Part shown: positions 10,421 to 59,885 of the stretch, piece by piece
How the letters are laid out: every line of letters begins with the position of its first letter
How positions within the stretch are numbered: the stretch's first letter is position 1
Virus record (IMG/VR): IMGVR_UViG_3300017970_000002
Span: 1 to 59,885 of that record
Reading direction: 5' to 3' (one strand)
DNA: 59,885 bases
From: a virus
Taxonomy: Duplodnaviria; Caudoviricetes
Notes under the pieces: generated by a model
The model's database searches: none
What the model was told of the DNA's origin: nothing
The model's input: only the letters and a program-made list of their open reading frames with translations
Translations under genes and position numbers: made by a program

Positions 10421-12693
10421 AGGTCAAACTCGCCTGAATACTCAAACCTTTCCTCGGGATCGTCCGCTCGCCCGTACTTGAACATACGCGAGATGACGGA
10501 CTCCTGGTCCTCTGGCTTGTACATGTAGGACTGCATCGGCGAGTCAGCAGGAATATCCATGGCCTGGAAGCCAGGGGAGTAGATTGGGTGTTCTAGACGC
10601 CCGCCGATCCGTTCACGCACGTCAGAGAGACCGCGCATCCCTTGATGGATCTCGGTGTCGTAGAGTGAGAGCAGGATGAAGCCGAGGGACATTATCCGGT
10701 CGTCATGGCCGCCGTAGGCTGCTTTCATGTCCTGCGAATCCCAGTCGCGCTCCCAGTCTTCCATCTCCTCGACGAACCACGGCGAGTTGATGTCTATCCA
10801 GCCATCGCGGAGGGCTTTGGTTACCCAATCTACGAGCATGCAGCGGAACCAGTAGACGGTGACGATCCCGAGCTTATGGGCTTTGTGCTTCTGGATGCGT
10901 GCGGAATCGTAGCGCACCCAGGGGTGGAAGTTCACCCAGCCGCGTTTGCGTAGTTCGTTCTGGACGACTTCGCCGTTGCCTTTGCATTCGATCGCCGCGC
11001 GGACTTGACGGCGCATGCCTTCTCGGTAGACCGAGTAATAAGTTCCGACCGCCATGGCGAACGGCCAGAGGTCGAAGGCGTTAGTGTAATCGTAAGCATA
11101 CTCGGCGACTTGCGCGTCATTGCGATAAGTATCTCCTTTCCGCATAAACTCCAGGACTGAACGATCTTGTCCAAGACCGTCAGAGGTATCGCATCCGTAG
11201 CCATAAAGCGCAGTTTCTTCAGGGTGCTCCCAGATGTAGAGTTTGCCGAGTCCATCGTCACTTGAGTAACCCTCCCATTTCACAGGTTGAAAGCAGTAGT
11301 CTAGCGGGAGCCCCGTGCCCCACGTGCAGCGGACGTTGATTGGCGCGATATTACGGTCCCAGCGAGGTTCCGGTACACGAAGGCGGTCTGGGATATCGGG
11401 ACCAAGGATTGTATAAACGCCGAGAGGGTTTCGTGCGGAAGTAGCAGAATGGTAGGCTGCAATCGTCTCGGCGTCGAATACGCTGATATTTGAAGATTGG
11501 AACGCTTCGAGATCATCGGCGGGCATCTCCTGGAAGAACTTGTTCAGCTCCTGCTTGGCTTTGTGCTCCTCGTACTCGACCTCGTAGAACCACATCTGCT
11601 CGCGCGGCATCTGCCAGCCTTCGCCCAGGAATCGGCGCAGGAGCGCATTCACCTTCACGTAGGATCGGGCGCGCTCGGCATGAGCGGTCACCATTGCGTT
11701 CGGCGACCAGTCATGAGGCATCGGACGGGCGCGCAGCCAGGTCTCGGACGGGTAGAGGTCGGTCCCGACGAACCACGGAAGGAAGATGGGGCGCAGGCGC
11801 GAGCGCCCGGAGTCCCAGTTCTCCTTCGCGTACTGCCAGGAGCGGTGCCACCAGTTTCGGCGCCCCATGGCGGTGGATTCGAGGACCAGGAACATCCACG
11901 GGGAATCGTGCATTGCACGCATGAGAGAGGCGTCTACGAGATCCTCGGCGTTTTTGTAGTCCGAGAGTTCGGAGAGATGCGCAACGGTCGGGGTGGTGCC
12001 ACGCGCGATCCCGGTGAACTGCGCACCGTGCTGGATCGAGATCGCAGAGTCCTGGCCGGGGAATTCCATCAGTTCGCCCACAACCTGGCGGATCTCGGGC
12101 TGGAGGTAGAACGGCTGCTCGTCGAAGGCCAGCTCCATCATTCCGGCCATCTTCGTGGACTTATCGGGGTCCGAGGACGAGACTACCGCGTTCACGTGGG
12201 AATAGAATTGCGCGCGGTGGAGCACGCGGAGTTCGGTGTCGGTCGAGACGCCGAGCTGGCGGGCCTTGAGTTCGATGAAGGCGATGGCGATCTGCTGGAG
12301 TTCGTTCTCGGAATCGAGGGTGTGAAGGATACGTTGCGCGACGTTCGGGGAGTAGTGGATCAGGGTGCCATCGCGGGAGCGGATACGTGCGTAGCGGGTC
12401 GCCCAATAATTGAAGTCACAACGACAGACCTGGCGTTCATTGCGTTTCCACTGTTCCTCGTCAGCATGAAGATCCCTCTTCAACTTTCCGGTCTCGGGGT
12501 CAATGAGATCACGGAAGTACCGCGCGGCGCTATCGACTTCGGAAACCGAGTGATACTTTAGCTCGAAGTCGAAGCGCGGTTTGCCCTGAGCGTCACGCGC
12601 TGCTTGCACCTTGGCGAGATTGCGGTCGATTACGGCGCGGTGGTAGATGGCAGAAACTCCTCGATGGCCTGTAGGATAGCGGGCACATCCCAC
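10417..12693 (-). CDS. terL: Terminase large subunit
   Basis: Walker A 'LKARQLGVST', 'HLSE', 'ESTAMG', nuclease 'GCDTSDG' and 'HDDRIM'; true start uncertain. Confidence 0.92.
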   Translation of the reverse strand: MGCARYPTGHRGVSAIYHRAVIDRNLAKVQAARDAQGKPRFDFELKYHSVSEVDSAARYFRDLIDPETGKLKRDLHADEEQWKRNERQVCRCDFNYWATRYARIRSRDGTLIHYSPNVAQRILHTLDSENELQQIAIAFIELKARQLGVSTDTELRVLHRAQFYSHVNAVVSSSDPDKSTKMAGMMELAFDEQPFYLQPEIRQVVGELMEFPGQDSAISIQHGAQFTGIARGTTPTVAHLSELSDYKNAEDLVDASLMRAMHDSPWMFLVLESTAMGRRNWWHRSWQYAKENWDSGRSRLRPIFLPWFVGTDLYPSETWLRARPMPHDWSPNAMVTAHAERARSYVKVNALLRRFLGEGWQMPREQMWFYEVEYEEHKAKQELNKFFQEMPADDLEAFQSSNISVFDAETIAAYHSATSARNPLGVYTILGPDIPDRLRVPEPRWDRNIAPINVRCTWGTGLPLDYCFQPVKWEGYSSDDGLGKLYIWEHPEETALYGYGCDTSDGLGQDRSVLEFMRKGDTYRNDAQVAEYAYDYTNAFDLWPFAMAVGTYYSVYREGMRRQVRAAIECKGNGEVVQNELRKRGWVNFHPWVRYDSARIQKHKAHKLGIVTVYWFRCMLVDWVTKALRDGWIDINSPWFVEEMEDWERDWDSQDMKAAYGGHDDRIMSLGFILLSLYDTEIHQGMRGLSDVRERIGGRLEHPIYSPGFQAMDIPADSPMQSYMYKPEDQESVISRMFKYGRADDPEERFEYSGEFDL

Positions 12694-13862
12694 TTGAACG
12701 GATCGCGGTTACGGAAATAGCGCACATGCGGCCCGTACCATTCGTCAACTAGGGTATCGCGGAACCATTGCCAGCCGGAGTGGCAGGGGAGCAGGATCAG
12801 GGTTGGGACGCCACAGAGCGCGGAGAGATGAGCTACGGCGGTGTCGGCGGTGACTACGTAATCACAGCATTGCACCAAAGCCGTTGTGTCCGTCCAAGTT
12901 GCATCAGGTGCGAGCGTGTAGCAGTACACCTTGTAACCTTTCGCGCCCGGAGACGCGCCAGGAACTAGAGACTCTAATCGACCGCGCGATTGCAAATTAC
13001 AAGCTATGTCACGTGCTGACAGATCGTCTAGCATCTTCGTCTTGCGCATATCGCCGAGTTGCGCAGCGGTCCAACAGAATCCGATGCGTGGTGTCTTATT
13101 ACGTGGCGGCAGGGGTCTATAACACATCTGCGTCCACGCATTCGGCCAAGGCACATCCCCCATCGACCTCATCCCACTCAACGCAGGCAAACTCATCCAG
13201 CTCGTCGAGTAATCGTACTCAAGCTGCAAATCCGCGTCTTTTGAGATAACGCGATCCACGCCGAGTTTCGTCCAATCCGTCCAGTCCTTGAGGCAGTCCC
13301 AGATCATCAACGTGACCTTTGTCGCCCCGGATGCTTTGACAAAGGGTAGCCAGCGCGAGAACAGGAATGCGTCGCCGTATCCGCCTTCGCAGACAACGAG
13401 CACGCGACCGGGCTTGAAGGACGGGTGCCAGGGCGGGGCGACCGGGAACACGTGCCAGGAGTAGTTGATCCGGCCCATTTCCCAGAGCGGCCACGCACGG
13501 GAGAATTCGCGCTCGCGGAGGAGGCATTGCGCGTAGCCAAGTGCGATACGGGTGTTGGAAGGGTCGAGCGAGAAGGCTTTGTCGTAGAGGGATAGAGATT
13601 GCGAGAAATTGCCGAGATCGGATTCCAGGTTCGCGAGGTTGAAATAGGCAACCGGGGAGCGTGGCGAGAAAGTCACGGCTTTGAGGAGGTGATCGCGCGC
13701 GGAGAAGAGGTGGCCTGCGGCGCGTTCGGCGACTGCGAGATTGCAGTAGGTCTTGTAGGATGGGTCGCGCCAGGCGAGTTCGCGCAGGGTTGCGAGCGCG
13801 GATTGCACGTTGCCTTCGGCGAGGGCGGACAGACCAGGCGCATTGGCGAGATGCTCAGACAT
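12630..13862 (-). CDS. TPR-repeat + GT9-like glycosyltransferase
   Basis: N-terminal TPRs; 'EGGYGDAFLFSR', 'MSLP', 'IGFCW', 'DYVVTADTAVAHLSALCGVPT', 'WQW'. Confidence 0.88.
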   Translation of the reverse strand: MSEHLANAPGLSALAEGNVQSALATLRELAWRDPSYKTYCNLAVAERAAGHLFSARDHLLKAVTFSPRSPVAYFNLANLESDLGNFSQSLSLYDKAFSLDPSNTRIALGYAQCLLREREFSRAWPLWEMGRINYSWHVFPVAPPWHPSFKPGRVLVVCEGGYGDAFLFSRWLPFVKASGATKVTLMIWDCLKDWTDWTKLGVDRVISKDADLQLEYDYSTSWMSLPALSGMRSMGDVPWPNAWTQMCYRPLPPRNKTPRIGFCWTAAQLGDMRKTKMLDDLSARDIACNLQSRGRLESLVPGASPGAKGYKVYCYTLAPDATWTDTTALVQCCDYVVTADTAVAHLSALCGVPTLILLPCHSGWQWFRDTLVDEWYGPHVRYFRNRDPFKWDVPAILQAIEEFLPSTTAP

Positions 13863-20695: not shown

Positions 20696-20898
20696 CCGAG
20701 ATCCAAATCCGGCGTGCTTGCAAAAAGCCAAAGCCTCGTTCAAGTAATCAGCTAGGCCACTTCAAGGCCATAGAGTGCCCCGACTGTGGCGCACCTGCTT
20801 ATGAAGGCAATAAGATACAACACGTACGCGTGTATGAATGGGTACCGCTCACATCTCTGGCTAAGCTGACGGCGGGGAAAGGTGAGGTGGAGGGATGA
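20692..20898 (+). CDS. Small CxxC protein
   Basis: Coupled ORF. Confidence 0.55.
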   Translation: MTEIQIRRACKKPKPRSSNQLGHFKAIECPDCGAPAYEGNKIQHVRVYEWVPLTSLAKLTAGKGEVEG

Positions 20899-21650
20899 GC
20901 GAACTCACGATCGCGATCACATGTTATAAGCGCCCGGAGCTGCTCAAAGGGTTGCTGGAGTCGATTGCGCAAGCTGATCTGACACATGTCGTGCGGTTCG
21001 TCGTAAGTGTAGACTGGCACTCGGATGAGATGTTCATGCGCATGTGCGACGTGTTTAGGCAGTCAGTCGGGGACCTCGGCGCGCGTGGTTGCCGTTTGTG
21101 CAAACAGGCGTATCGGCTCGGTATACATAACCACAATCGCTGGTTGATAAATGAAGCCTTCAACGCGCATAAGGCCGAGGCCGTGGTCATGTTGGAGGAG
21201 GACTGCGTAGTCGCGCCTGATGCGTTAAACTTTGCGTGGTGGGCGTTGCAGCAGAATGGCGCGATCGTAAACCTAGGTGGCAAATGGTCCGATGGCGTCA
21301 GACATGCCGTACGTGGTACGCACCTTATCGAATCCGCAGGCTGGGCGGTCACTCGCGAGAACTGGCAACAGATCGAGCCTTACTGGAATGGCAAGATGCG
21401 CATGCCTGTCGGCTGGGACTGGTCACTCTCGTACCTCTGCTACGTGCGCGGATGGGACACAATCGATCCACTAGTCGCGCGAGTGAAGAACGTCGGTCGA
21501 ACGAATGGTACGTATCAGACAGCAGCGGATTATGACCTGGATCGCGCGAATGTCGTACTGGCGACCGGGATACCGAAGGAGTACACGCTGCTGGAGGGCG
21601 AACCGGATCGGACTTGGCCTGAGTGGGTGAAAGAGGAGGCACGGCTGTGA
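20895..21650 (+). CDS. GT-A fold glycosyltransferase (GT2/GT13-like)
   Basis: 'ITCYKRPE', 'VSVD', 'MLEEDC', 'GWA', 'GWDW', 'RVKNVG'. Confidence 0.85.
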   Translation: MSELTIAITCYKRPELLKGLLESIAQADLTHVVRFVVSVDWHSDEMFMRMCDVFRQSVGDLGARGCRLCKQAYRLGIHNHNRWLINEAFNAHKAEAVVMLEEDCVVAPDALNFAWWALQQNGAIVNLGGKWSDGVRHAVRGTHLIESAGWAVTRENWQQIEPYWNGKMRMPVGWDWSLSYLCYVRGWDTIDPLVARVKNVGRTNGTYQTAADYDLDRANVVLATGIPKEYTLLEGEPDRTWPEWVKEEARL

Positions 21651-22384
21651 AACTTGTTGTGCTGTCCTCGTGCTATCAACGTCCAGATCTCCTCGCGACA
21701 CTCGCCGAGTCCTGCCAGCTATTCAGGCATGATCTGATCCTGGTCGAAAAGCCCGGAGCCGCATGGACCAACTGCCGCGAAGGGAAACTCATCGCCGCGC
21801 GCGACAAGCTGAAGGAGCTGGCGACGGCTGGTGTCTATACGCACGCGCTGTGGACCGATGGCTTTGACTCGTTCATGTGCCAGCCACTACATGCGATTGC
21901 ACGTGAGCACGCTGCGATGGGTAGCCCAGAGATCATCCTGTCAGCCGAGAAGAACTGCTTTCCTGACGCCACACTAGCCAAGCTCTACCCACTGCAAGAC
22001 TCGCCTTGGGAGTTCGTATGCGCTGGCGGCTGGCTGGTCGAGATATCAGCGCGCGTCTGTGGTGTCTTCGATCAACTCTGCGCTGAGGAGTCGCCGGAAG
22101 ATCAGCTTACCTGGGCGCGCGCGTATGTCAATGGATTCGTCGGCGGAATGGCAACGCTCGATGTAGGATGCAGGATATTCCAGACGATGTGGGGGACCTC
22201 GGAGTTCGACGAGGTGACCGTTACGCCAAAAATCAACGGTGATGTGGTGAATCACGTCACGGGAAGTCATCCTTGCGTCATTCACTTCAATGGCTCAGGC
22301 CCAGATCATCCGACTCAGCGTTATTTGAGCATGTGGCAGCGTTTGTGGTTCGCAAAGCAGCTTCCAGGATCACTGCAAGCATGA
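21647..22384 (+). CDS. Glycosyltransferase resembling the PLOD/LH3 GT domain
   Basis: 'WTDGFD', 'SAEKNCFP', 'AGGW', 'DQL', 'LD..CRIFQT', 'P.VIHFNG'. Confidence 0.85.
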   Translation: MKLVVLSSCYQRPDLLATLAESCQLFRHDLILVEKPGAAWTNCREGKLIAARDKLKELATAGVYTHALWTDGFDSFMCQPLHAIAREHAAMGSPEIILSAEKNCFPDATLAKLYPLQDSPWEFVCAGGWLVEISARVCGVFDQLCAEESPEDQLTWARAYVNGFVGGMATLDVGCRIFQTMWGTSEFDEVTVTPKINGDVVNHVTGSHPCVIHFNGSGPDHPTQRYLSMWQRLWFAKQLPGSLQA

Positions 22385-27504: not shown

Positions 27505-28672
27505 CCGCGCCTCCTGTGGCCTGATCTACGGCGCAATGAACACGCTCAAGACGACGAATCTCGGGCGCATTGCGCGCTACCTGTTCGAGACGCATGGCTT
27601 GCGCTCGCGGTTGATCTCGGCTGACAACGAGTGGGATTCGCTAACCCAGGAGATCGACGACGGTATCATCATCCCGCTGACTATTGTCGCCGCGCCTCGC
27701 CCGTTCCCACTACTCACGAAGCTCTCGAAGGGCATGTGGCCGGGTCCTGATCCGCGTCAAAAGGGCAAGCTGGTGATGCTCCCTACTCCCCCCGAGGAGC
27801 TGGCGAAGTATTGCTACCTGATCGAGGGTATTAAGACGATCTCCGAGCTGTTGATGCAGGACCATGTTAACAAGGCGCGCGTGATCGGCCAGGACGTGGT
27901 GGGCAAGTTCGAGGAGGCGCTAGTCCCCGGCGACGAAGCCTATACCTACGCGAACCCGGCGCAGTCCCACCATTACAACGTGCAGACAGTCGTCACAATG
28001 TCGCTGATTCCGGACTTCATGTCGCTGCCTGTGCGCTGGGTCTGGTGGACAGGCCACGAGTACAAGGGCGAGGACGAAGCTACTGGGCAGCGCATGCTCG
28101 GGCCGGGCGTCACAGGCAAGGCCGCGACCACGATCGTCCCACGCAAGGTCGGCAACTGCCTGCACTCGGATTCTACCGAGACTACCGAACTCGATCCGAA
28201 GACCAAGAAGAACACACGTACGATCGAGTATCGCGCCTACTACGAGCGCCACGCAGACCTGGAGTCTCCGTCACTCAAGTGGCCCGCCGCGCTCAAAATG
28301 CCCGCGAAGTGGGTCCCGGTCTGGCGCGAACGCCACCCAGGCGGCTACATCAAATTGACCTTCGACGAAGGAATCGAGGATTACCTGCGATTCCACGACG
28401 AGATGGCGGTCAAGGCTCCGACGGCGTTTGCTGGACAGGCGGGCGTTGGGGCTGAGTTCGCCGCGCAACTGGCGGCAGGCGCTGAATCCTCGGAGGAGGT
28501 ATCCACGGCGCCTGCTCTGGTTGTGCAAGCAAGCCCGACGACTGCGGTACCCGTGGACACAAGCTCGAAGCCCGAGCCTCTGTGGAAGCAGCGCATCCGC
28601 GAACGTGAGGAGCAGCAGAGACAGCAGGCAGTGAACGAGTCTAAATCAACAAAGGAAGAGGTGACAAAGTAA
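27494..28672 (+). CDS. Sak4-like / AAA_24 ATPase
   Basis: 'LIYGAMNTLKTT', 'TGHE', 'GP...GK'; between exonuclease and SSB. Confidence 0.75.
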   Translation: MPSSRASCGLIYGAMNTLKTTNLGRIARYLFETHGLRSRLISADNEWDSLTQEIDDGIIIPLTIVAAPRPFPLLTKLSKGMWPGPDPRQKGKLVMLPTPPEELAKYCYLIEGIKTISELLMQDHVNKARVIGQDVVGKFEEALVPGDEAYTYANPAQSHHYNVQTVVTMSLIPDFMSLPVRWVWWTGHEYKGEDEATGQRMLGPGVTGKAATTIVPRKVGNCLHSDSTETTELDPKTKKNTRTIEYRAYYERHADLESPSLKWPAALKMPAKWVPVWRERHPGGYIKLTFDEGIEDYLRFHDEMAVKAPTAFAGQAGVGAEFAAQLAAGAESSEEVSTAPALVVQASPTTAVPVDTSSKPEPLWKQRIREREEQQRQQAVNESKSTKEEVTK

Positions 28673-28673
28673 C

Positions 28674-29303
28674 ATGCCAGACGTAGATACGATCGACATA
28701 AACGACCCAGCATTACAGCAGGAGATGGTGGAGGCTGATCCGGAAGCAAATTTCTTCGAGGCGCCGCCGCCGCCGCCAGACGATCGGGAGTATGAAGTGC
28801 GCATCGTGTGTGAGGAAGCGCCGAAGATTGCAAGGCAGGCTAAGAAGGGCGAGCAGAAGGGCAAAGGAACCGGGCCGTTGTACGCCAACTTCTCACTGAC
28901 ACTGCGCATCGTGGCACCGAACGAGCCATGGGACAACCAGCCGGTGTTCGACAAAGCGACGAGCATGGTCATGGAAAATTCAGGCACGAGCAGGCTGCAC
29001 TCGATCCTGCGCGCGGTGCGGGCACCAGCCTTGGGTAGGATGACGCTGCGCGAGCTGATCGACCACGCGACGAATGTGTTCGCGACCGAGCCGACTGCGT
29101 TCATCGAGGGTGAGTGGGAATCGAGCATCGAGGCTCCGGGGAACAAGCGCGCGGATAAGGGTGGGTACGTGCGCGCCCGGCGTGGTATGCAGAACTTTGT
29201 GAAAGACGACACGAAGCCTAGCGGTTACAACCACGTGTGGGATGATCCCGAGCTTGGGCCTGCGCCTGCGAAGTTTCGTGTTACCAACTACATCATTCGG
29301 TAG
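28674..29303 (+). CDS. ssDNA-binding protein-like (DUF669-type)
   Basis: 'PPPP....Y.V.I' start; follows Sak4. Confidence 0.55.
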   Translation: MPDVDTIDINDPALQQEMVEADPEANFFEAPPPPPDDREYEVRIVCEEAPKIARQAKKGEQKGKGTGPLYANFSLTLRIVAPNEPWDNQPVFDKATSMVMENSGTSRLHSILRAVRAPALGRMTLRELIDHATNVFATEPTAFIEGEWESSIEAPGNKRADKGGYVRARRGMQNFVKDDTKPSGYNHVWDDPELGPAPAKFRVTNYIIR

Positions 29304-29540
29304 AGTTTGCCGCCCGAGTCCGGTAGGTCCGGGTCCCGTAGTCAGTCACTGGTTGACGGCGGGCGGTATGAATTGGCGGCCAAGTTGTGCAGGTAAGGTC
29401 GGGTGGGTCTAGCTCGAAAGAGGGCCATGTCATCCCGGCGCCGCCAAATAGATCCTGGGGACGGCGAGCTAGAAGTGGACCTGCGAGGGCTGCTGACTGG
29501 GCGATGACCCGTCCCTGGGTGATTTACGACTAGGTGGATT
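29304..29540 (+). ncRNA. Candidate multi-hairpin antisense/regulatory RNA
   Basis: Three closing stems (29308-16/29360-68; 29373-80/29440-47; 29454-64/29509-19); complementary to helicase and MCP leaders. Confidence 0.65.
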
Positions 29541-29542
29541 GA

Positions 29543-29773
29543 ATGCCACGACGATCAAGTGAAGGTGCCAAGATTCTGCGGTTCTTCGACACGGAGCCGC
29601 TCGACAAGGTTCGGTTCGTATTCGACATGGTGCGGGATGTGGTCGCAGCGCGGGTCAAGGCTGCGAATCCGCAGCCGATCAAGAAGGCAGCCACGCGGCG
29701 CAAGAAGCCGAACGCGAACCTGCCGCAGGCCACGGCTGAGCAGAAGGCCGCAACGAGTCCCGAGGCTGACTGA
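29543..29773 (+). CDS. Small basic protein
   Basis: ORF with SD. Confidence 0.65.
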   Translation: MPRRSSEGAKILRFFDTEPLDKVRFVFDMVRDVVAARVKAANPQPIKKAATRRKKPNANLPQATAEQKAATSPEAD

Positions 29774-30021
29774 TGGACAAAGACCTCGAACGCGAGCTCG
29801 ACTCAACCCCCGCGATCCCGCCGATCACGGTAGATCAGCGCAAGTATCTGACGGGCCTGCTCGACGAACTCGATATCACGCTAGAGGAAGCCATGCGCGA
29901 TTCCTGCGTGAATGGCGATTTCATGTGGGACCCGGAGGAGATCGAGGACGTGGGGGAGCTGAGCAAGCGGCAGGCGAGTGTGTTGATCGATTATCTGAAG
30001 CAACTTAGGCATGAACGATAG
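29773..30021 (+). CDS. Hypothetical protein
   Basis: 'T..Q.KYL..L...LSKRQASVLIDYL' phage motif. Confidence 0.7.
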   Translation: MDKDLERELDSTPAIPPITVDQRKYLTGLLDELDITLEEAMRDSCVNGDFMWDPEEIEDVGELSKRQASVLIDYLKQLRHER

Positions 30022-30024
30022 GGA

Positions 30025-31317
30025 GTGGATTATATGGAAGACCGCAACGTGGAAGTCGAATTTGTGTCGGGCGCGGCTGGCTCGGGCAAAACCTTCGAGA
30101 TGAAACGCCGCATCGCCGAGGACCCGCATTTCGGCATCCTGACCTCGACGACCGGCGTATCCGCGATCAACCTCGACACGGTGACCGTTCACAGCAAATT
30201 GGGCTTCTACGACACGGACAGCCTGCTCGATGCCTACACCTCTGGTAAGCTCCAGCGCCGACTCCGCGCGCTCCATTCCGAGGGCTACCGACGCCTCGTG
30301 ATCGATGAAGTCTCGATGCTTCACGCGCGGCAGCTAGACACACTCTACCTCGCGATCAACGAGGTCAATGTAGGGTCTACGTTCGCCGCGCTCGACCCAC
30401 CGCTCGGGTTGGTCCTGACCGGCGACTTCTGCCAGCTCCCCCCAGTCAAAGGCGAATGGGCATTCAAGGCGCAGTGCTGGCCGGATTTCGCCGCGCACAC
30501 AACGAGGTTGACGAAGATCTGGCGCCAGGCCGATGTCGGGTTTCTGGAGGCGTTGAATCTCGCGCGGTCAGGTGATGGTGTGGAGACCGCTGCGTGCCTC
30601 AAGCACCTGAACTGCAACTTCTCGCTCGGCCTCGACCTGAACTTCGATGGGACCACGATCGTCGCGAAGAACGCCGAAGTCGATCGCTACAACAATATCC
30701 GCATGGCCGCGATCAAGGAAGAGCCGATCAAGCTCGTGAACACGCGATGGGGGCTGCAACTGAGTGACTGGAAGAACATCCCCGAGACGCTGACGGTGAA
30801 GCCTACGGCGCTGGTGATGCTGCTGGCCAATAATAAGGACGAGGCTGGTGGATTTGTGTACGTGAACGGGGACCTCGCGCATGTGTCAGCCGTAGAGGAC
30901 TTCGGTGAGTTCAAGCTGATCGCTATGACCCTGTTGCGTGGCGACAAGAAGGTCGCGGTAGGGCAGATTACACGTCAGAACCTTTCAAAGCAGGAGCCAT
31001 CCGAATCCATGATCGCGCAGGCGCGCCTCAACGGAGACCGCGATCCTTACTTCGACGAGCAACGCAACCGCTGGGTCCTAGGCGAAGTCTGCTACTGGCC
31101 CATGCGGCTCGGGTACGCTTCCACCGTTCATAAATCGCAAGGGTTGTCGCTCGACCGCGTACAGATCGACTGCCGCGATGGGTTCTTCGGCGCGAACAAT
31201 TTGGCGTATGTGGCATTGAGCCGCGCACGGACGGTAGCAGGCATGCGCGTCGTTGGCTCGCCTGAGATATTGGCAAGACGGATCAATCTTGACTCGGAGG
31301 TGAAGGATTGGCTATGA
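30025..31317 (+). CDS. Pif1/RecD-like SF1B helicase
   Basis: GAAGSGKT, IDEVSML, GDFCQLPPV, RQ, YASTVHKSQG, YVALSR. Confidence 0.95.
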   Translation: MDYMEDRNVEVEFVSGAAGSGKTFEMKRRIAEDPHFGILTSTTGVSAINLDTVTVHSKLGFYDTDSLLDAYTSGKLQRRLRALHSEGYRRLVIDEVSMLHARQLDTLYLAINEVNVGSTFAALDPPLGLVLTGDFCQLPPVKGEWAFKAQCWPDFAAHTTRLTKIWRQADVGFLEALNLARSGDGVETAACLKHLNCNFSLGLDLNFDGTTIVAKNAEVDRYNNIRMAAIKEEPIKLVNTRWGLQLSDWKNIPETLTVKPTALVMLLANNKDEAGGFVYVNGDLAHVSAVEDFGEFKLIAMTLLRGDKKVAVGQITRQNLSKQEPSESMIAQARLNGDRDPYFDEQRNRWVLGEVCYWPMRLGYASTVHKSQGLSLDRVQIDCRDGFFGANNLAYVALSRARTVAGMRVVGSPEILARRINLDSEVKDWL

Positions 31318-31529
31318 ATGAGCACCTAGAGGTAAGACTCGTGGAGGCGCTGGAGAGCATCGCGTCATCGTTCGCGAAGATTGCCTATGTAATCAACAGC
31401 GAGAGCATACGCTTATTCGTGAGCTTTGGTGATGGCGCCAACGAGGATGCGCCATTCTGTGTAGAAGCGAACCTGTACACCGGCGAGCATACGCGGCCTG
31501 TTAAGGTGGCCAAGGACATCATCAAATGA
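31314..31529 (+). CDS. Hypothetical protein
   Basis: Coupled ORF. Confidence 0.6.
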   Translation: MNEHLEVRLVEALESIASSFAKIAYVINSESIRLFVSFGDGANEDAPFCVEANLYTGEHTRPVKVAKDIIK

Positions 31530-32974
31530 ACAGTCAGCCTAGGATCGCATTCTGCACGACCTGCAAAGGCCGCGCGCAACACGTCGAGGAGACGCTGCCG
31601 AAGAACCTGCTCGACAACTGCGGATATCAGAACGCCGTGTTCATTATCCTCGATTACAACTCGCAGGATCACCTGCTGGAGTTCGTGAAGACGCGGCATT
31701 CCAAGGCACTCAGCAGCTGGCGACTGGTTGTCTATAGCTACCGCGTGGACACTTCATTCCACTTGTCCCACGCGAAGAACATGGCGGCCCGGCTCGGTAT
31801 CCTCGAAGGCGCCGATATCCTCGTGACCATGGATGCCGACAACTTCACTGGCCCAGGATTCGCCCAATTCATTGCCGAGAAGTTCAAAGCCGCGCCACAG
31901 ACGCAGCCAGGGATGTTCCTGTCGCCCAACTTCCCGCTGATCCATTCCCTCCCCTACGGCCCGAGCCGCCCGCTGCGGGGCTTCGCCGGGCGCCTCGCAA
32001 TCCGCGCGCAGGACTTCGTGAAGATGGGCGGCTATGACGAGACCTTCGATACCTGGCGTGGCGAAGACATCGACATGATCTCGCGGCTTGAGAAGGTGGG
32101 ATACCGTGCGCAATTCATTGATAACAGCTATCTTATCGTCATCCCTCACAACGCCGCCGTCCGCTTCAAGGAGTACCCACACGCGCGGGAGTTGTTTGAG
32201 AATAAAGGTCAACTGAAGGTCATCGACAAGCGCACTGTAACGGTCGTCAATTACGGGCGCTGGGGCGTTGGCACTGTGTACAACAGCTTCACGAACAAGG
32301 AGGTTAAGCTGCTCCCATTACCTACGCGCATCTTCGGAATCGGACTACACAAGACCGGCACGACTTCGCTCGATGCTGCATTCAAGATCCTTGGGTACGA
32401 TAGTTTGCATTGGGGCACCGGCGAGGCTCCTAAGATCTGGAATGAGATGCACTCGACCGGTCACTCGAAGACGCTTGAAGCCTGGTACGCGTTCTCGGAT
32501 CTCCCTATCCCAGTGCTCTACCGCGAGCTGGATAAGGCATACCCTGGATCGAAGTTCATCCTCACGATTCGCAATGAGCAGGCTTGGGTCAAGAGTGTCG
32601 AGAAGCTCTGGGACCCGAGGTACAACCCAACCCGTTGGATGTGGGACGTTTACCCATTCAGCAACCGGGTGCACAAAGCACTCTACGGGCGCGAGGATTT
32701 CGATCGAGACACGTTTCTTGCGCGATACCGCAGGCACAATCAAGAGGTCCAGGGGTACTTCAAGAGTCGGCCAGATGACCTATACGTCATGGACATTGAC
32801 AAGGAAGACAAGTGGCCGGGATTATGCGCTTTCCTCGGTGTCCCTGAGCCATCTGTTCCGTATCCGGCCAGTAACGTAACAACCAAAGCGCCGGTTGAAG
32901 TTCCAGCGGCGCGCATGGCATGTCAGCAGCACATCGTGAAAAGCATGCAGGGCGTGTACGGAGATGGCATATGA
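31526..32974 (+). CDS. GT2/GT7C glycosyltransferase fused to sulfotransferase-family domain
   Basis: 'DYNSQD', 'DAD', 'GGYDE.F..W.GED.D'; then PAPS-binding 'GIGLHKTGTTSL' and 'KFILTIR...W..S'. Confidence 0.88.
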   Translation: MNSQPRIAFCTTCKGRAQHVEETLPKNLLDNCGYQNAVFIILDYNSQDHLLEFVKTRHSKALSSWRLVVYSYRVDTSFHLSHAKNMAARLGILEGADILVTMDADNFTGPGFAQFIAEKFKAAPQTQPGMFLSPNFPLIHSLPYGPSRPLRGFAGRLAIRAQDFVKMGGYDETFDTWRGEDIDMISRLEKVGYRAQFIDNSYLIVIPHNAAVRFKEYPHARELFENKGQLKVIDKRTVTVVNYGRWGVGTVYNSFTNKEVKLLPLPTRIFGIGLHKTGTTSLDAAFKILGYDSLHWGTGEAPKIWNEMHSTGHSKTLEAWYAFSDLPIPVLYRELDKAYPGSKFILTIRNEQAWVKSVEKLWDPRYNPTRWMWDVYPFSNRVHKALYGREDFDRDTFLARYRRHNQEVQGYFKSRPDDLYVMDIDKEDKWPGLCAFLGVPEPSVPYPASNVTTKAPVEVPAARMACQQHIVKSMQGVYGDGI

Positions 32975-33243: not shown

Positions 33244-33428
33244 CGCCGAAGCGTTACCTACTCGTATACAATCCTGGACTCATCAGCGCGGCTGATATTG
33301 GCAAAGCGCAGGAAGCTCTTGTTGAGGCAAGTGTCCAACTTATTCCACTCCCCCTCGATCCCAACTCTGGTAAGTCGGCCTATAAGCTGATCGATCTCGA
33401 CAACGTAGAGAAGAACTTCTCGGAATGA
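33240..33428 (+). CDS. Hypothetical protein
   Basis: Coupled ORF. Confidence 0.55.
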   Translation: MTPKRYLLVYNPGLISAADIGKAQEALVEASVQLIPLPLDPNSGKSAYKLIDLDNVEKNFSE

Positions 33429-36340
33429 AATCCATCCCAGGCTACCCACTCGATCAAGACGTTCGTATCATTGAGCCATCCGGTACTGGCTCCCTGCGCG
33501 TTCTGGCCATGGGCGAGGCTGGTGGTCGTCACGAAGCGCGTCTCGGTCACCCGTTCGTCAAGCACGCTGAAGCCGGGTCAGTGCTCGAACGCGCGCTGCG
33601 CTTTGCTGGGATTGATCGCGACCAGCTCACCATCACGAATGCAGTCTGGTGGCAACCCCCTAACGACTACCTCGATGGCGCCTGGTACGAGCACAAAGCC
33701 ATCAGCATGTGCCGCGAGTGGAATGATGCGCTGATCGAGGAGCGCCAGCCGAAGTGTCTCCTAGCCCTAGGCGGCATCCCAATGCGCGAACTGAGCGGCA
33801 TGTCGGGCTACCGGGAGGGGATTCTCATGCTACGTGGCTACCCGATCAAGTCGCCGCGTTATGGCATCCCCGTCCTCGGTACTTACCACCCGTCCTATCT
33901 GCGGCGCGGCGAGAAGCAGGAGTCCGAGGAAGGCGCAGACGTAGAGTCAGCAGCCGGACGTGGCATGGATCTCATGGGCGTGCTCATCCACGATATCCAG
34001 TACGCTGTGAAGCTCGCGCGGGATGGGATGCCAGTGCGCCCGGAGCCTCCGCGTCATGTCCTATTCGGCACGCACGAGACCTTGCTGCGGTTCTACGAGG
34101 ACGCCCTCGCGCACCCGGAGCTGCCGATCGCATGGGACATCGAAACCGACCAGTTACTGGCGGCTGAGGACGAGAGCGAAATGGAGCGCTTAGTCCTGAC
34201 CGACGCCGTGACTCAGATCCAGTTCAGCCTGCGCCCGTCCGATGCATGCGTGTTCCGCTGGACCGATGACTTAGCCGACCTCGTGGTCAAGCTCATGCGC
34301 CTGCCTAACCCGAAGCTCGACTTCAACGGCAGATTGAGTGACCGCCCGATCCTGCGCCAGTTCCTTCGCGACAAGGGCCACGAAATCCGTTACTGCGGCG
34401 ACAACCACGATCTGATGGACATGTGGCACCATGCGCAGCCGGATTACCCCAAGGGCTTGCAGCATGTGACGAGTTACTTCGCCAGTTTCCTCGGGCCGTG
34501 GAAGCACTTGAACATCGCGGATCGTGGGTTGTATGGCGCACTCGACGCCGAGAGCCTGCAATGGATCTACAGGAAGTTGCCGGGGGATCTCAGGAAGCTC
34601 GGGATCTGGGATGGGTACGAGCGGCACGTGCTGAAGCTGTCACGCACGCTGGATAAGGTGACGGCGATTGGTATCCCGATCAATGATGAGAAGCGCGTCG
34701 AGTTTGGCAAGGATCTGGATATCGAGAAAGCCGCACTCGAACGGGAATTGCAGAAGCTCGTGCCTGAGGATATCAGGCCGGTACATCCGAAGGAGGGTTG
34801 GAAGAAACTGCCGGGTGCCGTCAAAGCCGACCTGCTTACGTGGAACCTGTATCACAACCCGCAGTCGTGTTTGATGGCACTGGACGCGCTGCCGGATCGT
34901 ATCGAGACAGCCATAGGCACCGTGTACGTCCGTCGCGAATTTGGCGAGATCGACCAGACCGCAATCTGCGAGAACCGCGTGTGCCGCTGGTGCCGACTCG
35001 AACCATTCAACCCGAATTCGCCCGATCAGATCAAGCTGTACATCGAGTTCAAACGCAAGGAGGAAATCGATGCGCTCATCCGGAAAGGATGGGACCGCAA
35101 AAGGGCCGAAGCCAAAGCGAAGTACAAGGTCCCGCGCAACTTCAAAACGGATAAGGAGACCACGGGCAAACGAGAGCTGCTACGACTTGCGAAAGCCACT
35201 GGAGATCAGCTTTTTCCCAGTACCGTCCACATACGTGAATTTGGGAAGCTCAAAGGTACATACGTTGACGGTTGGGCGCCTACTGATGATAAGAGGGCGC
35301 ATTCAACTTTCGGATTTGCCCCAGCCACTTCTCAGTTGTCTAGCGAAAATCCAAACAGCCAAAACGTCCCGAGTGAGAAGTCAAGAGGGGCTGCGATTTC
35401 TCCAACTATTGTTAAGCTGGCTGAGAGGTTCAGAGGGATTATCGAAGCCCCAAGTGGCTTCACTCTCATTGAGTTCGATTGGAGAGCTTTCCACGCCCTA
35501 ATGCTCGGCTTCGTCGCGCAGGACCCGACCTACATGCGCCTCGCGCGCCTCGATATCCACTCCTACTTCGCCGCGTGTGGTATCCTCAAGATCGCGAATG
35601 GTGACAAGCTGCTTGTGATGCCAGACGCCGAGCTAGCCTCCTACCTCGCATGGGTCAAGAAGACGCACCCCGTGGTCCGCGACGGCCAAGCGAAACCCGC
35701 GATCCTCGGCTACGGTCTCGGGATGCGCGGCTATACGCTCTGGCAGCACAACCTAGAATCGTTCTCGGGCCGCGTCGAAGCCGACCGCGTGCTCGACCAG
35801 CTCGATGGCGAGTTCCCGGTGACCGCCAAATTCCGCCGCGCTGCGCTAGAGGAAGCGAATTATGGCAACGAGCATCACGGGCCGAACTGCCTCGTCCTCA
35901 AGCCCTGGTCGATCCGGCGCTTCTGGTCAGTCTACGAGAACAAGCCCGTGACCGATGCCTACCGGCCCAAGAAGGGCGAGAAGGTCTTCGTAGACTCACA
36001 GAAGCAGTACTGGAAGGTAGGCCACGGGTCCGACGCCGAAGCCGCGATCTCCTTCTACGTGCAGAATTCAGCGCACGGCCACATGAAGGAGAACATGCTG
36101 GCGATCGACGACGCGGGCTGGCTCGAACGCTATGGTATGTGCAACACGGTGCATGACGCGTTCTGGTTCTGCTGCCCGAAGGAACTGGCCGAGGAGTGCT
36201 ACGTGAACGTGAAACCGCAGATGGAGGCACCATCGACCGTGCTCAAGAATCCGGTGATGCCCGAGGGGTTCTGGTGCGCTGTGGATGCGACGATTGGGCC
36301 GACGATGAGATCAGCCGACCGGCGGAAGTTCCGTGTCTAG
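33425..36340 (+). CDS. polA: DNA polymerase A with N-terminal family-4 uracil-DNA glycosylase domain and 3'-5' exonuclease
   Basis: UDG 'GEAGG', 'TN', 'YHPSY'; exo 'DIET', 'Y...D'; pol 'SSENPNSQN', 'EFDW', 'R...AK', 'VHD'. Confidence 0.93.
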   Translation: MKSIPGYPLDQDVRIIEPSGTGSLRVLAMGEAGGRHEARLGHPFVKHAEAGSVLERALRFAGIDRDQLTITNAVWWQPPNDYLDGAWYEHKAISMCREWNDALIEERQPKCLLALGGIPMRELSGMSGYREGILMLRGYPIKSPRYGIPVLGTYHPSYLRRGEKQESEEGADVESAAGRGMDLMGVLIHDIQYAVKLARDGMPVRPEPPRHVLFGTHETLLRFYEDALAHPELPIAWDIETDQLLAAEDESEMERLVLTDAVTQIQFSLRPSDACVFRWTDDLADLVVKLMRLPNPKLDFNGRLSDRPILRQFLRDKGHEIRYCGDNHDLMDMWHHAQPDYPKGLQHVTSYFASFLGPWKHLNIADRGLYGALDAESLQWIYRKLPGDLRKLGIWDGYERHVLKLSRTLDKVTAIGIPINDEKRVEFGKDLDIEKAALERELQKLVPEDIRPVHPKEGWKKLPGAVKADLLTWNLYHNPQSCLMALDALPDRIETAIGTVYVRREFGEIDQTAICENRVCRWCRLEPFNPNSPDQIKLYIEFKRKEEIDALIRKGWDRKRAEAKAKYKVPRNFKTDKETTGKRELLRLAKATGDQLFPSTVHIREFGKLKGTYVDGWAPTDDKRAHSTFGFAPATSQLSSENPNSQNVPSEKSRGAAISPTIVKLAERFRGIIEAPSGFTLIEFDWRAFHALMLGFVAQDPTYMRLARLDIHSYFAACGILKIANGDKLLVMPDAELASYLAWVKKTHPVVRDGQAKPAILGYGLGMRGYTLWQHNLESFSGRVEADRVLDQLDGEFPVTAKFRRAALEEANYGNEHHGPNCLVLKPWSIRRFWSVYENKPVTDAYRPKKGEKVFVDSQKQYWKVGHGSDAEAAISFYVQNSAHGHMKENMLAIDDAGWLERYGMCNTVHDAFWFCCPKELAEECYVNVKPQMEAPSTVLKNPVMPEGFWCAVDATIGPTMRSADRRKFRV

Positions 36341-59282: not shown

Positions 59283-59803
59283 TACATCACCATGACCTCG
59301 ACCCCGAGTTGTTGACCGGCTGCGGTAGACATCGCACTTAGGTAGCCAAACGGAATGTTCTGATAGGTTGACTCGTATTCGTGCATGTCATCCGGGTTTA
59401 GGCTATAGGCGTAACTCGTTGCTGTCATCGCACTGGAGCCAACGAGGACCTGCGCGGTGTTCGCGTGAGTCGCGTACAAGTTGAAGGAGCGCGCGGCGCC
59501 TGGGCAGTTCGCGTCAAGCTGCGCGCGAACGAGTGCGAGGATGTTGTAGACTTGATTCGCGTTCGCGAGCGTGATTGTACCAGCTACGTAAGCTGACGAC
59601 ACGTGCTGCCTCCTGAACTCATCGGCCCTCTGCTCCTTTATCAGACTGACGAGGGTGCCCAACGCGCCGACCACATCGTCCCATTGGCGCACCAAGCCGG
59701 TGAAGGCCATCAGGTACCGATCCCGATTGCGCCACAGGTACACCGGCACGCCAACGATAACCACGAGAATCAGAACTTGCGTAACGACCAGGAGCCACAG
59801 CAT
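59282..59803 (-). CDS. TM-anchored beta-domain protein with nested GTG start at 59602
   Basis: N-terminal TM; internal AGGAGG 6 nt before in-frame GTG. Confidence 0.65.
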   Translation of the reverse strand: MLWLLVVTQVLILVVIVGVPVYLWRNRDRYLMAFTGLVRQWDDVVGALGTLVSLIKEQRADEFRRQHVSSAYVAGTITLANANQVYNILALVRAQLDANCPGAARSFNLYATHANTAQVLVGSSAMTATSYAYSLNPDDMHEYESTYQNIPFGYLSAMSTAAGQQLGVEVMVM

Positions 59804-59885
59804 CTACCCTCGCTTCGACCGGCCACGCTTCCCTTGGCGCTTAAACGGGATCTTCGCACCGGCTTTACGTGCCTGAGAGAGTGCG
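59763..59885. repeat. Terminal direct repeat, right copy
   Basis: Identical to 1-123. Confidence 0.97.

Follow-up and report, generated by a model that had tools for sequence, protein, structure and literature searches.

A covarying hairpin with a putative k-turn between replication genes of an uncultured peat/soil phage

The replication-module gap and its predicted hairpins

The window, by which we mean the whole stretch of DNA that was analyzed, corresponds to a full-length virus record: it measures 59,885 bp, has a G+C content of approximately 58% and carries an exact 123-bp direct terminal repeat (positions 1 to 123 and 59763 to 59885). In four peat-metagenome DNA runs, contigs were identical to the phage over positions 29150 to 29700 wherever they covered that region. 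A peptidoglycan hydrolase domain (PF07486), together with strong Shine-Dalgarno sequences, points to a bacterial host, and no tRNA or tmRNA genes were found. Neither a blastn search with positions 28000 to 31000 nor a tblastn search with the 209-amino-acid (209-aa) protein discussed below gave a match among GenBank phages; with that protein unmatched and the best match to the helicase at only 33% identity (Microcystis phages), the phage has no cultured relatives among them.

Within a long plus-strand block of early/replication genes, the largest noncoding gap, of 239 nt, separates the genes for a 209-aa and a 76-aa protein. We assigned this gap to the replication module because of the Dda/PIF1-like helicase gene that lies shortly downstream, the order 3' of the gap being 76-aa gene, 82-aa gene, helicase, glycosyltransferase-sulfotransferase and a fusion of a uracil-DNA glycosylase (UDG) to a family A DNA polymerase. 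The main features are as follows.

28674 to 29303, plus strand: upstream gene, 209 aa; no match in Pfam or PHROG, DUF669-like by ESM Atlas (a lead only)
29308 to 29368, plus strand: hairpin 1 (HP1), predicted; Y-shaped, with a 9-bp closing stem and two subhairpins
29373 to 29447, plus strand: hairpin 2 (HP2), predicted; 8-bp closing stem, GAAA at 29416 to 29419
29408 to 29416, plus strand: TCTAGCTCG, a perfect complement of 29465 to 29473, near chance and not conserved
29454 to 29519, plus strand: hairpin 3 (HP3), a conserved stem-loop with a putative k-turn and the sole part of the array with comparative support
29533 to 29538, plus strand: Shine-Dalgarno-like GGUGGA, 4 nt 5' of the ATG
29543 to 29773, plus strand: downstream gene, 76 aa; N-terminal half conserved, tail Lys/Arg-rich, assigned to no family
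30025 to 31317, plus strand: Dda/PIF1-like helicase gene

The 209-aa protein is rare, with only 10 sequences, including itself, found at an E value of ≤0.001 in a library of 5.8 billion. In the ESM Atlas, it fell near DUF669 clusters (score, 0.94; structural TM, 0.45 to 0.50), which serves as a lead only; a Foldseek search against the PDB returned no match at an E value of ≤0.001 and weak OB-fold/SSB-like rows only, and the AlphaFold model (pLDDT, 70) had a fold that was not L7Ae-like. The word PPPPDDR was invariant in this protein. For the 76-aa protein, the ESM Atlas search was uninformative (top score, 0.80), and an alignment-based search recovered only the records of a single IMG/VR relative (L001/L002; see below).

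Elsewhere in the genome, the UDG-polymerase fusion (33425 to 36340) encodes a 971-aa protein with an N-terminal uracil-DNA-glycosylase-superfamily domain (PF03167) followed by the family A DNA polymerase (PF00476, phrog_17). The early/replication block also holds, at 20895 to 22384 and 31526 to 32974, several glycosyltransferase-family genes (PF13641 and PF25342 GT_PLOD) and the fused glycosyltransferase-sulfotransferase gene (PF02709 and PF17784), and a TPR- and heptosyltransferase-like gene was found at 12630 to 13862. Such glycosyltransferase/heptosyltransferase cargo is unusual for a 60-kb phage and might have a role in DNA or surface modification.

A first-pass annotation had described the gap as an array of three tandem stem-loops with cross-hairpin complementarity. 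Its words and coordinates were all correct in the sequence: the minimum-free-energy fold gave HP1, HP2 and HP3, and the GAAA of hairpin 2 was found where listed above. As a unit, the array did not hold up, since the whole region folded at -99.2 kcal/mol, compared to a shuffle mean of -100.4 ± 4.9 kcal/mol (z, +0.24; minus strand, +0.60), and 116 of 200 dinucleotide shuffles folded at least as well. Folded singly, the hairpins reached z-scores of -2.15 (HP1), -1.33 (HP2) and -2.81 (HP3), values that are flattering because the boundaries were chosen after the fact. In the nested ensemble, stem pair probabilities were 0.60 to 0.78 for HP1, 0.59 to 0.86 for HP2 and 0.80 to 0.95 for HP3. No similar copy of hairpin 1 or 2 was present in the phage genome or in any fetched locus, and neither had a counterpart in any relative; we regard both as lineage-specific filler or local structure. 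The proposal that the gap contains a functional structured RNA thus survived for hairpin 3, in which compensatory changes were seen in four independent relatives, and not for the other two.

Relatives and covariation of hairpin 3

Protein-guided scans with the 209-aa protein yielded one IMG/VR relative that was recorded twice (L001 and L002, identical over 1,401 columns) and seven metagenome loci, one of which (L006) was the same contig as L001; prokaryote genomes contained no relative of this protein. Six distinct relatives included DNA 3' of the 209-aa gene, namely, L001, L004, L005, L008, L009 and L010. Hairpin 3 was found in the equivalent gap of the first four, bringing the number of independent carriers, with the phage itself, to five (L002 and L006 being counted under L001). 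The 209-aa proteins of the hairpin-carrying relatives were 51 to 63% identical to that of the phage, and the relatives' gaps, of 185 to 313 nt, were densely structured and unalignable as wholes. Among the carriers, hairpin length ranged from 57 to 83 nt, and the hairpin was single-copy both in the phage genome and in a relative of 59.8 kb. Homologues of the 76-aa protein were encoded 3' of the gap in L001, L004, L008 and L010, so that this gene follows the gap in four of the five carriers, the contig of L005 ending before that point.

Hairpin 3 was not detected in L009 and L010, whose 209-aa homologues were 50% and 44% identical, respectively. Two extra open reading frames (ORFs), at 894 to 1690, lie between the homologues of the 209-aa and 76-aa genes (the latter at 1691 to 1963) in L009, a locus in which no k-turn hairpin was detected; the gap is therefore an insertion hot spot in this clade.

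The sequence GGCGAUGA/GGCGATGA was the only 8-mer common to five of the seven gaps compared. It was invariant in all five carriers, as GGCGAUGA in the transcript, and lay directly 5' of the 3' arm in each, while GAG(C/U), likewise invariant, directly followed the 5' arm. The arms themselves differ between the phages and stay complementary, as is evident from the closing arms (5' arm/3' arm).

Phage: GGGACGG/CCGTCCC
L001: GGGGCC/GGCTCC
L004: CTGAGCG/CGCTCAG
L005: GGGAGACG/CGTCTCCC
L008: GGGAGC/GCTCCC

In a MAFFT alignment of four sequences (A6), 92.9% of cells were paired and six of nine closing-helix pairs had changed on both sides, with a covariation score that was reached by none of 500 column shuffles; sliding the partners by 1 to 3 columns reduced pairing to 31 to 53%. 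A covariance model built from the same four sequences (R1) recovered L008, which had not contributed to it, at the syntenic position, scoring 18.8 bits (E values of 0.093 in a search of 210 kb and 0.032 in one of 72.5 kb). In the resulting five-sequence alignment (A9), 91% of cells were paired and, again, none of 500 shuffles reached the score, although this alignment was fitted to the model, whereas the four-sequence MAFFT result is independent of model fitting. RNAalifold independently returned the same consensus of stem, 2-by-5 loop and stem. The covariation was concentrated in the helix that closes the hairpin (9 aligned pairs, 97 to 98% paired, 6 compensatory; score reached by 0 of 500 shuffles), with one-sided changes only in the inner helix (5 aligned pairs, 80 to 85% paired). 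Covariation among homologues, the lack of which the first-pass annotation had said would argue against function, is therefore present for hairpin 3.

Pairs of the G-U or U-G type occurred at 6 of the 14 aligned positions, indicating that it is the plus strand, as RNA, in which the structure works, rather than the minus strand. When six-frame peptides of the phage gap were compared by tblastn to the relatives' gaps, the best match had an E value of 0.044, spanned 12 residues and lay on the opposite strand; with no peptide conserved across the gaps, the gap is not a protein-coding small ORF. It is noncoding and is probably read on the plus strand within the replication-gene transcript. Outside hairpin 3, nothing in the gaps was conserved in sequence or order, and only hairpin 3 is under selection. 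We conclude with high confidence that hairpin 3 is a conserved RNA structure, on the support of five sequences from one narrow clade.

In the wider clade, hairpin 3 was not found at any of 22 loci with a helicase 40 to 55% identical to that of the phage. These loci are the members of that identity class among the 80 obtained in a helicase-alignment search, after removal of L039 and L057 because they represent the L001/L002 records. The covariance model gave three matches among them (E values, 1.6 to 1.8), all of which were mini-hairpins without a k-turn, and a descriptor scan with L1 to L3 set to GAU gave 12 matches, among which the sole look-alike (L047, 2432 to 2520) lay inside a 205-aa ORF. 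A single-sequence helicase search retrieved relatives at 26 to 33% identity only, with no convincing model match among them; the two matches in L013 (E values, 0.49 and 2.2) were discarded as unconvincing, the first falling within the helicase gene. As a negative control, we used the pattern GTTATGGG..GGCGATGA, which occurs in more than 118 stretches of viral contigs: among the 80 of these that were compared to the model, none fit it at the pattern site, and one unrelated match had an E value of 0.068.

Anatomy and possible role of the putative k-turn

The conserved letters of hairpin 3 surround an internal loop of 2 by 5 nt, present in every fold, in which GA lies opposite GAUGA. In the phage, its parts can be assigned as follows.

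29454 to 29464, plus strand: 5' strand of the NC helix, CCUGGGGACGG, pairing with 29509 to 29519 at a probability of 0.80 to 0.95
29465 to 29470, plus strand: nonbulged strand, in A9 columns 11 to 16, with C29465 (3n), G29466 (2n) and A29467 (1n), after which G29468-C29469-U29470 open the C helix
29500 to 29508, plus strand: bulged strand, with G29500-G29501-C29502 (C helix), G29503-A29504-U29505 (L1 to L3), G29506 (1b), A29507 (2b) and C29508 (3b)
29509 to 29519, plus strand: 3' strand of the NC helix, CCGUCCCUGGG

In a standard k-turn, a 3-nt bulge is followed by a G and an A, which engage an A and a G of the opposite strand in tandem sheared pairs (PMC8191799). At the level of sequence, all five carriers conform to this description, with GA-G(C/U) opposite GGC-GAU-GA. 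In the phage, the three-nucleotide GAU bulge (G29503, A29504 and U29505) is located on the 3' strand, and the predicted tandem sheared pairs are G29506·A29467 and A29507·G29466. Flanking helices are in place as well: 5' of the bulge, a C helix (G29468-C29502, C29469-G29501 and U29470-G29500) leads to a variable tip, and after the G·A pairs, an NC helix of 11 pairs in the phage (8 to 11 overall) closes the hairpin.

Two further positions are informative. A C:G pair at -1b:-1n, which is common and favorable for folding (PMC8191799), was found in five of five sequences (A9 columns 14 and 76). At 3b:3n, k-turns with 3b=C or 3n=G fold in metal ions, whereas those with a Watson-Crick pair do not (PMC8191799); the carriers have C:C (phage, C29508·C29465), U:G (L001, L004 and L005) and A:C (L008), each either unpaired or a wobble, so that, by these rules, four of the five should fold without protein, A:C falling outside them. 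A loose k-turn descriptor matched 67 sites on the two strands of the phage genome (0.56 per kb per strand), which means that the pattern alone proves nothing and that the assignment rests on the conserved letters and the covarying helices. On that basis, hairpin 3 quite probably contains a true k-turn.

The anatomy also clarifies two observations on which the first-pass annotation had built. Each hairpin had been said to carry a CRAGY motif, and the words exist (CGAGT at 29315 to 29319, CAAGT at 29381 to 29385 and CGAGC at 29465 to 29469) but are not a shared motif. Counted on both strands, the surrounding 3,239 nt contained 49 copies of CRAGY, compared to 36.5 ± 5.7 in shuffles, so that three copies in 239 nt are near the local density. 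Of the three, CGAGC in hairpin 3 alone is conserved; its invariant letters lie within the putative k-turn, which makes it real as the nonbulged strand and not as a word shared with hairpins 1 and 2. Similarly, the reported complements were found, including a perfect 9-nt match between TCTAGCTCG (29408 to 29416) and CGAGCTAGA (29465 to 29473) and the 6-mer pairs GCAGGT/ACCTGC, AGTCAG/CTGACT and GTCATC/GATGAC. However, of 500 dinucleotide shuffles, 40 contained a perfect inverted repeat of at least 9 nt, 18 contained at least four repeats of ≥7 nt and 5 equaled or exceeded the eleven repeats of ≥6 nt in the gap; complementarity of HP3 to the rest of the phage gap was matched by 14 of 300 shuffles. 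Together, these counts amount to a mild excess of self-complementary words. In the relatives, the corresponding HP3-flank score was reached by 18 (L001), 238 (L004), 158 (L008) and 119 (L005) of 300 shuffles. The cross-hairpin complementarity is incidental, being weakly above chance and not conserved.

This bears directly on the earlier idea of a three-hairpin array whose loops pair mutually, as pseudoknots or to sequester guide segments, and which is processed into separate small RNAs. Complementary words do exist, the 9-mer covers the nonbulged strand of the putative k-turn, and in L005 an 8-mer, CCAGCUCC (2990 to 2997), is likewise complementary to that strand. On the other hand, a match of the latter length was seen in 36 of 300 shuffles, nothing in L004 and L008 exceeded chance, and in the phage the 9-bp cross helix, both strands of which already lie within helices, had an equilibrium probability of approximately 0 and cost 8.1 kcal/mol to enforce. 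No targets or guide-like conservation were seen, either. Given, in addition, the background density of CRAGY and the absence of conservation in hairpins 1 and 2, we consider such an array very improbable; its proposal illustrates how a single-sequence reading of hairpins, shared words and complementarity can reach the right place for the wrong reasons. The closest survivor of that idea is an architectural one, in which the k-turn hairpin is a module of a larger RNA (a leader resembling a riboswitch or a small noncoding RNA filling the gap), and the kink directs the distal arm toward neighboring hairpins, with which it forms a tertiary contact or a pseudoknot. The 3b:3n letters predict ion-driven folding in four of five sequences, as in ribosomal and riboswitch k-turns, and the dense structure of each relative's gap, the enrichment of short inverted repeats and the marginal HP3-flank complementarity in the phage and L001 fit as well. 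L008 additionally has a candidate pseudoknot 3' of the hairpin, with segments in H-type order (CCTCGAC at 752 to 758, TCTCCGG at 764 to 770, GTCGAGG at 778 to 784 and CCGGAGA at 792 to 798), of which no equivalent was seen in the phage sequence. Against this stand the lack of conserved sequence or order outside the hairpin, its shifting place (at the end of the gap in two genomes and at the start in three), the variability of its distal part, the chance-level complementarity in L004, L008 and L005, the lack of any Rfam match and the finding that, of the two gaps folded over their full length, neither was more stable than its shuffles (z, +0.24 and +0.84). We therefore rate an architectural role as unlikely.

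Alternatively, hairpin 3 might be a signal for mRNA processing or stability, cut by a host RNase of the RNase III type with the GA/GAUGA loop as cleavage determinant, the cut leaving the upstream message with a protective hairpin at its 3' end. Its location between two codirectional genes of the plus-strand block would suit such a role, as would the start of the hairpin shortly after the upstream stop codon in L001, L005 and L008 (9 to 20 nt), the AU-rich, unpaired 5' flank in all five carriers and the absence from the gap of a U-tract terminator and of a sigma-70-like promoter, the consensus of which may not be that of the host. However, the invariant letters coincide exactly with k-turn letters, for which a nuclease site has no need, and we give this explanation no better odds than the architectural one. 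Finally, the element could act at the DNA level, whether as an origin of replication, a hairpin in single-stranded DNA or an operator for a protein, and its place in the replication module beside an SSB-like gene and a helicase is compatible with this. Such a role is disfavored by the many G-U and U-G pairs, which are A-C mismatches on the other strand; moreover, the arms lie 44 to 70 nt apart at a variable distance, which is unlike an operator. The unpaired letters are compatible with an RNA motif, and the cumulative GC skew has no turn at the position of the gap. A DNA-level element is thus hardly credible.

What we favor, at a probability of roughly 0.35 to 0.4, is that hairpin 3 is a protein-binding cis-regulator. 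The broader statement, that the k-turn stem-loop acts in cis on the replication-gene mRNA and is probably a protein-binding site, seems to us somewhat probable. The kinked hairpin would serve as an mRNA docking site for a phage or host protein that, once docked, might set the translation, processing or stability of the downstream 76-aa and helicase genes. Favoring this are the status of k-turns as classic protein sites, with the OLE RNA and YbxF/OapC as a bacterial precedent (PMC9723947), and the combination of eight consecutive invariant letters, although the flanking protein is only approximately 50% identical, with a free, variable distal arm. A third argument is positional: in the phage and L004, exactly 23 nt separate the hairpin from the start codon, which places the end of the hairpin at the 5' edge of the ribosome footprint, where a bound protein could block initiation. 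The same two genomes share the sequence GACTAG between the hairpin and the Shine-Dalgarno sequence (29528 to 29533 in the phage and 775 to 780 in L004). By contrast, the hairpin of L001, L005 and L008 is the first element of the gap, and its distance to the ATG is 125 nt in L008 and 203 nt in L001; this variable position speaks against simple occlusion of the ribosome site. The docking explanation is further weakened by the self-folding type of the 3b:3n letters and by the lack of an L7Ae-family gene, no such domain (PF01248 or related) having been found in 82 phage ORF translations. It is these points that make serious rivals of the architectural and the RNase-processing explanations.

A more specific version of protein docking, which we consider a long shot, is a phage k-turn/protein switch that works without an L7Ae-family protein, the binder being, for example, the adjacent 76-aa basic protein, and that times the helicase and replication genes. 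To our knowledge, no natural regulatory pair of a k-turn and its protein has been reported from bacteriophages so far; if true, this switch would be the first and would introduce a new class of k-turn binder. More generally, if the hairpin kinks and binds a factor, it would represent a compact and testable instance of posttranscriptional control, acting within the replication module of a peat/soil phage lineage not yet cultured, and might yield a new k-turn-binding protein useful to synthetic biology.

Comparison with known RNA elements

Searches with Rfam 15, the families of which include drum, RAGATH-18, hammerhead and riboswitches with k-turns, gave no matches in the whole phage genome at the gathering score, in positions 29100 to 29750 at an E value of ≤10 or in the six relatives' loci (15,487 nt) at an E value of ≤1. 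No known family, a match to which would have removed the novelty claimed for the array, was therefore detected. A hammerhead (CUGAUGA...GAAA) was rejected, the order of elements being wrong and the Rfam family unmatched, as was an intrinsic terminator, with no terminator-like plus-strand sites in 28900 to 29900 and a U6 run near the hairpin in L001 only.

Box C/D RNAs combine a C box, RUGAUGA, with a D box, CUGA. The bulged strand of the phage hairpin, GCGAUGA, shares GAU-GA with the C box. The partner strand is (C/G)GAG (occurring as CGAGC, GGAGC and CGAGU) instead of CUGA, however, the elements follow one another as in an internal D'/C' pair, and guide regions are absent, on the grounds of which we ruled out membership; the phage host is, in addition, bacterial, judging from PF07486. 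In early mRNA of phage T7, intergenic hairpins are processed by RNase III. Like these, the phage hairpin is irregular, measures approximately 60 nt, has an asymmetric internal loop and lies between cotranscribed genes; it differs in that its conserved letters are k-turn letters.

K-turns are well-studied modules of ribosomes, riboswitches, snoRNPs and the OLE RNP and are classic protein sites. A limited literature search, which does not prove absence, brought up no naturally occurring and conserved k-turn in the transcripts of bacteriophages. The module is known; the hairpin formed around it is, within the range of our searches, undescribed. The hairpin matches none of the Rfam k-turn families treated in PMC8191799, and compared to the k-turns described there, its NC helix is predicted to close the hairpin and its C helix to lead to a variable tip. 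It does share the C:C at 3b:3n with the Actinomyces-1 k-turn, for which ion folding and the N1 conformation are predicted (PMC8191799).

With regard to protein-bound k-turns on transcripts, archaeal L7Ae binds one in the 5' leader of its own mRNA (PMC6298567 and PMC5539422). The L7Ae leader sites are described as unable to fold alone, whereas the 3b:3n letters of the phage hairpin predict protein-free folding, which PMC5689011 and PMC6298567 present as typical of architectural k-turns and not of protein-operated switches. In Bacillus halodurans, a k-turn of the OLE RNA is bound by YbxF/OapC (PMC9723947). The L7Ae leader and OLE sites both represent k-turn stem-loops that serve, on a transcript, as specific protein sites; the phage hairpin, too, has the makings of a k-turn stem-loop on a transcript and, in the phage as well as in L004, is positioned just 5' of the ribosome-binding site.
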